This document shows, piece by piece, positions 36,165 to 37,099 of a stretch of 64,000 nt of DNA (positions within the stretch are counted from its first letter, which is position 1; each line of letters starts with the position of its first letter). Position numbers and translations under genes: made by a program. Origin of the DNA: Planctomycetota bacterium (GTDB taxonomy: Bacteria > Planctomycetota > UBA1135 > UBA2386). Location of the stretch: contig OZ245006.1 of NCBI GenBank assembly GCA_965223545.1, forward strand, positions 3,872,001 to 3,936,000. Direction: 5' to 3'. The notes beneath the pieces were generated by a model that worked only from the letters and a program-made list of their open reading frames with translations, was not told where the DNA came from and did no database searches.

Positions 36165-36201
36165 ATTGATTACCTTTACCCCTCTCATAACTTGTCCTTA
36201 T
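36165..36201. promoter_or_regulatory. OxyR binding site
   Basis: ATTG-N7-TTAC-N7-ATAA-N7-TTAT matches the spacing of ATAG-N7-CTAT-N7-ATAG-N7-CTAT; lies between dps and oxyR, overlapping the oxyR start. Confidence 0.8.
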
Positions 36202-37099
36202 GAATGAGGCACGCCCCAGTGTGCGCCAGCTGGAGTACCTGGTGGCGCTGGCCGAGACCCTCAACTTCGGCCGCGCCGCCGAGCGCTGCTTGGTCAGCCA
36301 ACCCGCGCTGAGCACGCAGATCCGGACTCTGGAGCAGCTCTTGGGAGCACCGCTGTTCGAGCGCGACCGACGCCGGGTGCTACCCACCGCCACGGGCCTG
36401 CGCGCCGCTGGGCAAGCCCGCGACGTGCTGCAGCGCATCGACGCGCTGGTGGAAGGGGCGCGCCACAGCCACCCCCTGTCGGGCGAGCTGCGTCTCGGGG
36501 TGATTCCGACCATCGCGCCGTACGTGCTGCCCAGGGTGGTGCCACGACTGACGCGACGGTTTCCCGATCTGCGCCTACAGCTGCGCGAGGACGAGACCGC
36601 GCGACTGGTCGAGCAACTCGAGCGCGGCACCCTCGACCTCTTGCTGGTCGCGCTGGAAGCTCCGCTGGGGGCCAACCAAACGCTCGAACTGTACCGGGAC
36701 TCGTTCGTGCTGATCGCGCCGCAGGACCACCGGCTCGCGGTGCAACGGACCGTCCGCGAAACCGATCTGGCGGGTCGCGATCTGCTGCTGCTCGAAGAAG
36801 GACATTGACTGCGACAGCAAGCGCTGGCGGTCTGCCAGCGGAGCGGCGCCGCTGAAACCACGGGGCTGCGGGCCACGAGCCTGCACACCCTGGTGCGCAT
36901 GGTCGGCGCCGGTGCGGGTGCGACGCTGTTGCCACAGATGGCGATCGCCACCGAAGTGCGCCGCGCCGACCGCATCACCCTGCGCCGCTTCAAACGCGAT
37001 GGCCCTCACCGGACCATCGGACTGTGCTGGCGGCCGAACTCCGCCCGCGCCGACGGATTTCGCGAGCTGGCGTCGGTGTTTCGCGACGCCAGCAGCTGA
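36200..37099 (+). CDS. oxyR: Hydrogen peroxide sensor OxyR, putative selenoprotein (Sec203), 299 aa
   Basis: LysR HTH; GVIPTIAPYVLP; LLEEGH-TGA(36806-36808)-LRQQALAVC...RATSLHTLVRMVGAG.G.TLLP...RTIGLCWR in one frame to stop 37099. Confidence 0.92.
36822..36840 (+). promoter_or_regulatory. Putative SECIS hairpin of oxyR
   Basis: CGCTGGCG-GTC-TGCCAGCG 8-bp stem (one G-U) starting 13 nt after the TGA. Confidence 0.75.

Follow-up and report, generated by a model that had tools for sequence, protein, structure and literature searches.

The peroxide chemistry of OxyR is well established: a sensing cysteine is oxidized by peroxide and is then captured by a resolving cysteine, and this chemistry is the basis of the analogies drawn here. 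Escherichia coli OxyR and the solved OxyR structures (7l4s, 6g1b, 4x6g and 1i69/1i6a) have a two-domain LysR architecture, which they share with the protein described below. Among bacterial selenoproteins, E. coli fdhF, SelD and the selenocysteine (Sec)-containing peroxiredoxins carry an in-frame UGA at the position of a redox-active cysteine, as does the oxyR gene studied here, and a hairpin lies just downstream of the UGA, inside the coding region. The Cys and Sec forms of such proteins are intermingled on phylogenetic trees, a pattern that is usual for selenoprotein families, and their genes are truncated in databases. All of these known selenoproteins are enzymes. A LysR-family regulator has also been linked to selenium biology, namely LysR_Se/HrsM (NF040786), which the main text of PMC9312934 presents as a regulator of selenium-related genes and not as a selenoprotein in its own right.

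The window, that is, the whole 64,000-nucleotide stretch of Planctomycetota DNA that was analysed, contains an oxyR gene that differs from its E. coli counterpart at the sensing residue, where it has a TGA instead of TGC or TGT, followed by a SECIS-like hairpin. It also differs from the described bacterial selenoproteins, since its predicted product is not an enzyme but a DNA-binding sensor and regulator. The gene is composed of the following elements.

36200 to 37099, plus strand: coding sequence of the proposed Sec-OxyR, 299 codons, with TGA codon 203 read as Sec.
36224 to 36397, plus strand: LysR-type helix-turn-helix DNA-binding domain, residues 9–66 (PF00126, 74.3 bits).
36473 to 37090, plus strand: LysR substrate-binding (regulatory) domain, residues 92–297 (PF03466, 159.1 bits), spanning the TGA.
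36806 to 36808, plus strand: in-frame TGA, codon 203, the proposed selenocysteine codon, in the column of E. coli Cys199.
36833 to 36835, plus strand: TGC codon 212, the resolving cysteine (E. coli Cys208), with its first base inside the hairpin loop.

The initial annotation had described an otherwise normal OxyR of 299 residues, with an in-frame TGA on the Cys199 position and the resolving cysteine kept nine residues later, and the alignments agree with it on each point. The frame opens with an ATG at 36200 and, after the TGA, continues through 96 open codons to a TGA stop at 37097–37099 without any other lesion. In a BLASTP comparison, the protein is 45% identical to E. coli K-12 OxyR (b3961, NC_000913) over 290 residues (E 2e-77). 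Residues 186–245 align without gaps with residues 182–241 of the E. coli protein, which places codon 203 on Cys199 and Cys212 on Cys208. His198 and Arg201 (E. coli numbering) are retained, giving the motif GH-x-LR...C, while Cys199 itself is absent and its column is occupied by the TGA, proposed to encode Sec. The GH-x-LR motif, the nine-residue spacing to the resolving cysteine and a dps/peroxiredoxin neighbourhood, all present in the window, liken the locus to OxyR. The PF03466 match covers profile positions 3–207 of 209, so that without read-through of the TGA the regulatory domain would be incomplete. The top-scoring NCBIfam family is the OxyR model NF008361 (271.5 bits, under the model cut-off of 329), versus 154.3 bits for the next non-OxyR family, CynR, and 123.5 bits for the LysR_Se model NF040786 (cut-off 250); no Sec-OxyR model is among the matches in NCBIfam release 20. 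At E ≤ 1e-20 the protein matches nineteen solved structures; the majority carry the name OxyR, and 7l4s is the best (7.7e-56). The source genome contains no second OxyR match at E ≤ 1e-30, i.e. no Cys backup copy. Gene callers give a 202-residue product for TGA-type oxyR wherever it occurs.

Related genomes were searched with the read-through protein as the query, and TGA-type genes were obtained as follows.

Order of the source genome, 339 genomes (the class-level search covered the same 339): 144 matches (1e-40), with TGA in the source genome and G052.
Phylum sample, 401 genomes: 44 matches (1e-60), with TGA in seven, namely the source genome (G000), G617, G514, G560, G527, G542 and G620.
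Family of G617, 29 genomes: 6 matches (1e-70), with TGA in four, adding G723.
Family of G542, 11 genomes: 2 matches (1e-70), with TGA in both.

The order around G617 yielded no further TGA gene, and a contig search with the single protein returned two relatives only, both without TGA. One of 80 metagenome loci (L106) carries the TGA. The DNA was thus read for ten TGA-bearing orthologues, from nine species genomes in five GTDB families (G000, G052, G617, G514, G560, G723, G527, G542 and G620) and from contig L106. In all ten, the TGA lies in the exact Cys199 column and is the sole in-frame stop, it is followed by 94–107 open codons that end where Cys-type OxyRs end, and the resolving cysteine is kept. 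Across 123 aligned loci, the Cys199 column holds TGC in 95, TGT in 24, TGA in 3 and TTG in 1, the last being a 37%-identical paralogue without the motif; seven more TGA genes join these three to make up the ten. The alternation of TGA with Cys codons that the Sec reading had led one to look for is therefore found, with TGA, TGC and TGT all occurring at exactly this column. Selection on the downstream frame is indicated by a post-TGA dN/dS of 0.32–0.36 in the closest trio, and more distant pairs give 0.35–0.89.

The protein databases hold further sequences of this type. Among the 120 best matches to the N-terminal 202 residues, 23 apart from the window's own protein are 197–226 residues long, and 21 of these stop exactly at ...DGH. 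Several ...DGH proteins sit on contigs of 69–318 kb, so a contig end does not account for their shortness. Of the 21, three duplicate loci that were read as DNA, and the other 18 are known as protein only. The distinct TGA-type sequences number 28, with identities of 43–92% (median 60%), and the stop codon is a presumed one in the 18 protein-only entries. The closest named relatives are Planctomycetota MAGs. Two sequences of a different kind were also encountered. A Cys-type OxyR (L064, contig G165:C14, at about 2270, minus strand) has an in-frame TAG near its N-terminus (QL*YF), a stop that probably reflects gene breakage or faulty assembly and not recoding, and the database protein P0054 continues with unrelated sequence after GHC.

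The segment that follows the TGA contains one further element.

36822 to 36840, plus strand: SECIS-like hairpin with a 7-bp stem and a GGUCU loop, dG −12.5 kcal/mol.

The hairpin (CGCTGGC / GGTCT / GCCAGCG) begins 13 nt past the TGA, where the initial annotation had reported a hairpin with an fdhF-like GGTCTGC apex, and its loop starts 20 nt past the TGA; an alternative pairing has 8 bp and a GUC triloop. At its apex, E. coli fdhF has the identical heptamer, GGTCTGC; GGTC starts 20 nt after the TGA here versus 18 nt in fdhF. The bSECISearch model looks for a hairpin shortly downstream of the UGA with G/U in its apical loop, and the hairpin here has these features. On its own, the 71-nt fold is unremarkable (z −1.76, with 12 of 200 shuffles folding equally well), and what lifts it above chance is the comparative data, in which the TGA occupies the same column in ten of ten TGA-bearing orthologues. 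An Rfam scan of 36700–36950 at E ≤ 10 gave no match, which says little since bacterial SECIS elements are short.

In a comparison of nine TGA loci, the loop lies about 20 nt after the TGA in the source genome, G052, G514 and G620, a GGUC tetraloop lies 28 nt after it in G617 and G560, and a GC-rich hairpin with a GUS loop is found 33–34 nt after it in G527, G542 and L106. G723 also pairs in the 20-nt register, which brings the genomes with that hairpin to five. No single register is common to all TGA genes, which show three arrangements. A SECIS-like rule modelled on the bSECISearch criteria (stem of at least 5 bp, loop of 3–6 nt with GU, loop start 16–37 nt past the codon, dG ≤ −7), fixed only after the TGA genes had been seen, selects 9 of the 10 TGA genes versus 9 of 119 Cys genes; a looser rule, which asks for a G at loop position 1 or 2, selects 9 of 10 versus 29 of 119. 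With a rule set afterwards and sequences that are related by descent, the Fisher and Mann–Whitney p values overstate these contrasts. The best GU-loop hairpin of G723 reaches a dG of only −6.6. The minimum free energy of the downstream 48 nt is −23.2 kcal/mol for nine TGA genes versus −18.2 kcal/mol in the comparison.

Compensatory stem changes, another expectation of the Sec reading, occur in the five genomes of the 20-nt register, where three of the seven pairs are changed on both sides. Pairing is complete in the five core pairs (25 of 25 cells) and reaches 88.6% over all cells, versus 26–46% with the partner slid. This covariation, drawn from five genomes that are kin, was reached by 11 of 500 shuffles. 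The opposite outcome, with all close orthologues bearing Cys and no conserved hairpin, is not what the data show: some orthologues carry TGA instead of Cys, and among these the hairpin is conserved. An in-register 5-bp hairpin is also present in 8 of 119 Cys genes (L044, L085, L099, L100, L105, L108, L109 and L135), because the A-L-A-V-C-(Q/E) codons are partly self-complementary. In these eight genes, it may represent a pre-existing proto-SECIS that eases Cys-to-Sec switches.

The machinery on which Sec insertion depends was located in the source genome (8.1 Mb in 2 contigs, 91% complete), where selA (464 bits), selB (318), selD (346) and tRNA-Sec (74) all score above their curated cut-offs, and ARAGORN calls the tRNA as tRNA-SeC (TCA). 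The selD gene (G000:C1:1264004-1264921, minus strand, outside the window) adjoins selA and has an in-frame TGA at GGG-U-AAKL, followed by a 9-bp hairpin with its loop beginning 26 nt past the TGA; as judged from its sequence, the selenophosphate synthetase of this genome is itself a selenoprotein. All seven other TGA genomes tested, a set without G723, have a tRNA-Sec of 69 bits or more. G052 has selA and selB over the cut-offs. Of the six other TGA genomes in the phylum sample, four have selB over the cut-off, and a search at E ≤ 1e-50 detected none in G542 and G620, both of which are incomplete assemblies; selA is listed for five, and G527, an incomplete assembly, is not among the matches listed. 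As a rule, members of the phylum appear to use selenocysteine, with selA in about 285–288 of the 401 sampled genomes, and the machinery is so widespread that it constitutes a necessary condition rather than a discriminating one. Global reassignment of UGA was considered separately and rejected, as TGA is the terminal stop of both oxyR and the peroxiredoxin gene beside it.

On the other side of the oxyR start, the window contains the following features.

35665 to 36105, minus strand: Dps, a ferritin-like DNA-protection protein (PF00210, 103.3 bits), divergent from oxyR.
34864 to 35622, minus strand: peroxiredoxin (AhpC/TSA)-glutaredoxin fusion, with an in-frame TGA at 35482–35484 on the peroxidatic Cys.
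36185 to 36203, no strand: candidate LysR-type operator, a perfect dyad TCATAA-N7-TTATGA that overlaps the oxyR start in the oxyR-dps divergent region.

The peroxiredoxin TGA lies in the context PLDWTPT-U-SQE and is followed, 22 nt downstream, by a hairpin with an AGUCU loop, which suggests that the fusion protein is probably also a selenoprotein. The selD and peroxiredoxin hairpins are placed at distances similar to that of oxyR. Across the nine TGA loci examined, a Sec-type peroxiredoxin stands beside a TGA-type oxyR at the source locus only, while dps and/or an AhpC-type peroxiredoxin lies within about 3 kb of six (five of eight excluding the source locus); dps adjoins the TGA-type oxyR in G617, G514 and G560 as well. 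The dyad at 36185–36203 is a candidate site of autoregulation.

From these data, we consider it very probable that the gene encodes a full-length OxyR-type peroxide sensor in which the sensing cysteine is replaced by selenocysteine. Other explanations of the TGA have to be weighed against this reading. A sequencing or assembly error for TGC or TGT might be suspected because the genome is an assembly and the depth in the runs bearing the TGA codon is low (7.85 and 2.2). However, the codon recurs in the contigs of two studies without a difference, as the claim of a genuine TGA predicts: a Logan contig of 10,079 nt from run X1, possibly the source of the assembly, has 0 differences over the TGA, and a Logan piece from a second study, X5, spans 36778–36904 with 0 differences at depth 2.2. 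The contigs of runs X3 and X6 do not span the TGA. The same TGA is found in independent assemblies of eight other genomes and in one metagenome contig, and an error is accordingly a negligible prospect. A pseudogene, in which a decaying OxyR has recently suffered a TGC/TGT-to-TGA nonsense mutation, would need a single base change, and broken copies do exist, as G165 with its in-frame TAG and P0054 illustrate. This account is nonetheless very unlikely, given that the same codon is seen in all ten DNA sequences, across five families and with no second lesion in any, that the low dN/dS of the closest trio extends past the stop, that the largest TGA clade contains 14 diverged rows, and that the gene is the sole OxyR match in its genome.

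A somewhat less remote, though still improbable, alternative is that the UGA acts as a real stop, leaving a 202-residue DNA-binding fragment made up of the helix-turn-helix and half of the regulatory domain, or that low-level read-through by a near-cognate tRNA puts in Trp, Cys or Arg, so that no selenoprotein is made. The short product of the gene callers is in keeping with this idea, and no RNA sequencing run containing the stretch was found. UGA followed by C is a leaky stop context, and C follows the UGA in 9 of the 10 TGA genes. Against a plain stop or casual read-through, the stop is kept in one column across 28 sequences down to 43% identity, the downstream frame is conserved and under selection, and the hairpin is enriched relative to the Cys genes; these three observations call for selection on the codon. 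Moreover, the fragment would end inside the regulatory domain and lack the resolving cysteine, yet this cysteine is kept in ten of ten, and tRNA-Sec is present in all genomes tested. The placement of Sec at the sensing position, as the initial annotation read it, is thus supported as far as sequence reaches; for the insertion of Sec, the selenium–sulfur chemistry and the regulon, we infer the following course.

In the proposed mechanism of the Sec-containing OxyR, SelB carrying Sec-tRNA(Sec) would recognise the hairpin 13 nt past the UGA and insert Sec at codon 203. The N-terminal LysR helix-turn-helix of the resulting 299-residue protein would bind DNA. Following the model of OxyR, the selenolate would react with H2O2 to form a selenenic acid, which Cys212 would capture as a selenenyl-sulfide. 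This bond may then switch the regulatory domain, by which transcription of dps and of the Sec-peroxiredoxin/glutaredoxin gene would change.

The Sec and Cys forms are mixed on the OxyR tree, as in known selenoprotein families. In a FastTree phylogeny of 149 rows, the Sec label requires 10 changes, at least six of them forced by well-supported branches, and none of 500 shuffles was as low. An IQ-TREE phylogeny of 79 rows again requires 10 changes, with three forced. A tree joining all 28 TGA rows was rejected by the AU test (delta lnL 87.6, p-AU 0.0048), in which the tested group is defined by the trait itself and 18 rows are N-terminal fragments. A more far-reaching view, which we regard as tentative and rather doubtful, is that Sec-OxyR is a selenium-gated peroxide switch and that a proto-SECIS already present in OxyR has let it arise repeatedly. 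The spacer codons for A-L-A-V-C-Q/E would fold with a G/U loop about 20 nt after codon 199, as they can in the eight Cys genes noted above, and one TGY-to-TGA change might then be enough to recruit SelB. Such a proto-SECIS and a single base change would explain several independent Cys/Sec switches, in accord with the rejection of a single clade. A sensor with a selenolate would respond faster and would resist irreversible over-oxidation. Under selenium shortage, translation would end at codon 203, leaving a DNA-binding fragment that could not be activated, and the whole peroxide regulon, the Sec-peroxiredoxin included, would thereby be tied to selenium supply.

A full-text literature search, with subscription journals outside its scope, found no paper describing a Sec-OxyR. 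The word "OxyR" occurs 0 times in the main texts of PMC9312934 (a 2022 review in which LysR_Se figures only as a selenium-related regulator), PMC12013277, PMC13188914 (a 2026 review of the prokaryotic selenoproteome), PMC1794560, PMC5029168, PMC2398784 and PMC1976440. The main text of PMC4807772, on Planctomycetes selenoproteins, and its supplement files 1–12, including the candidate table, contain no such gene. The proposed Sec variant of OxyR is real and recurrent, with strong sequence evidence behind it, and is apparently undescribed as far as the texts searched indicate. The selenoproteins in the main texts of the prokaryotic surveys searched are enzymes or small redox proteins. If the reading is true, Sec at the sensing site of a transcription factor extends selenium biology from catalysis to signalling, and it raises the possibility of an oxidative-stress regulon that depends on a trace element. 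The natural Sec/Cys pair among close relatives offers a way to learn what selenium gives to peroxide sensing, in terms of rate, resistance to over-oxidation and speed of reset. Sec-OxyR is also an annotation problem: with 21 of the 120 best database matches cut at ...DGH, many genomes seem to have a truncated OxyR or none. HyPer peroxide probes use the regulatory domain of OxyR as their sensing module, and a natural Sec version could therefore inform the design of HyPer-type probes.

Directly downstream of oxyR, the other strand carries an ORF of 738 residues (37114–39330, minus strand), with the P-loop motif GPLKSGKST and a C-terminal tail rich in proline and alanine.
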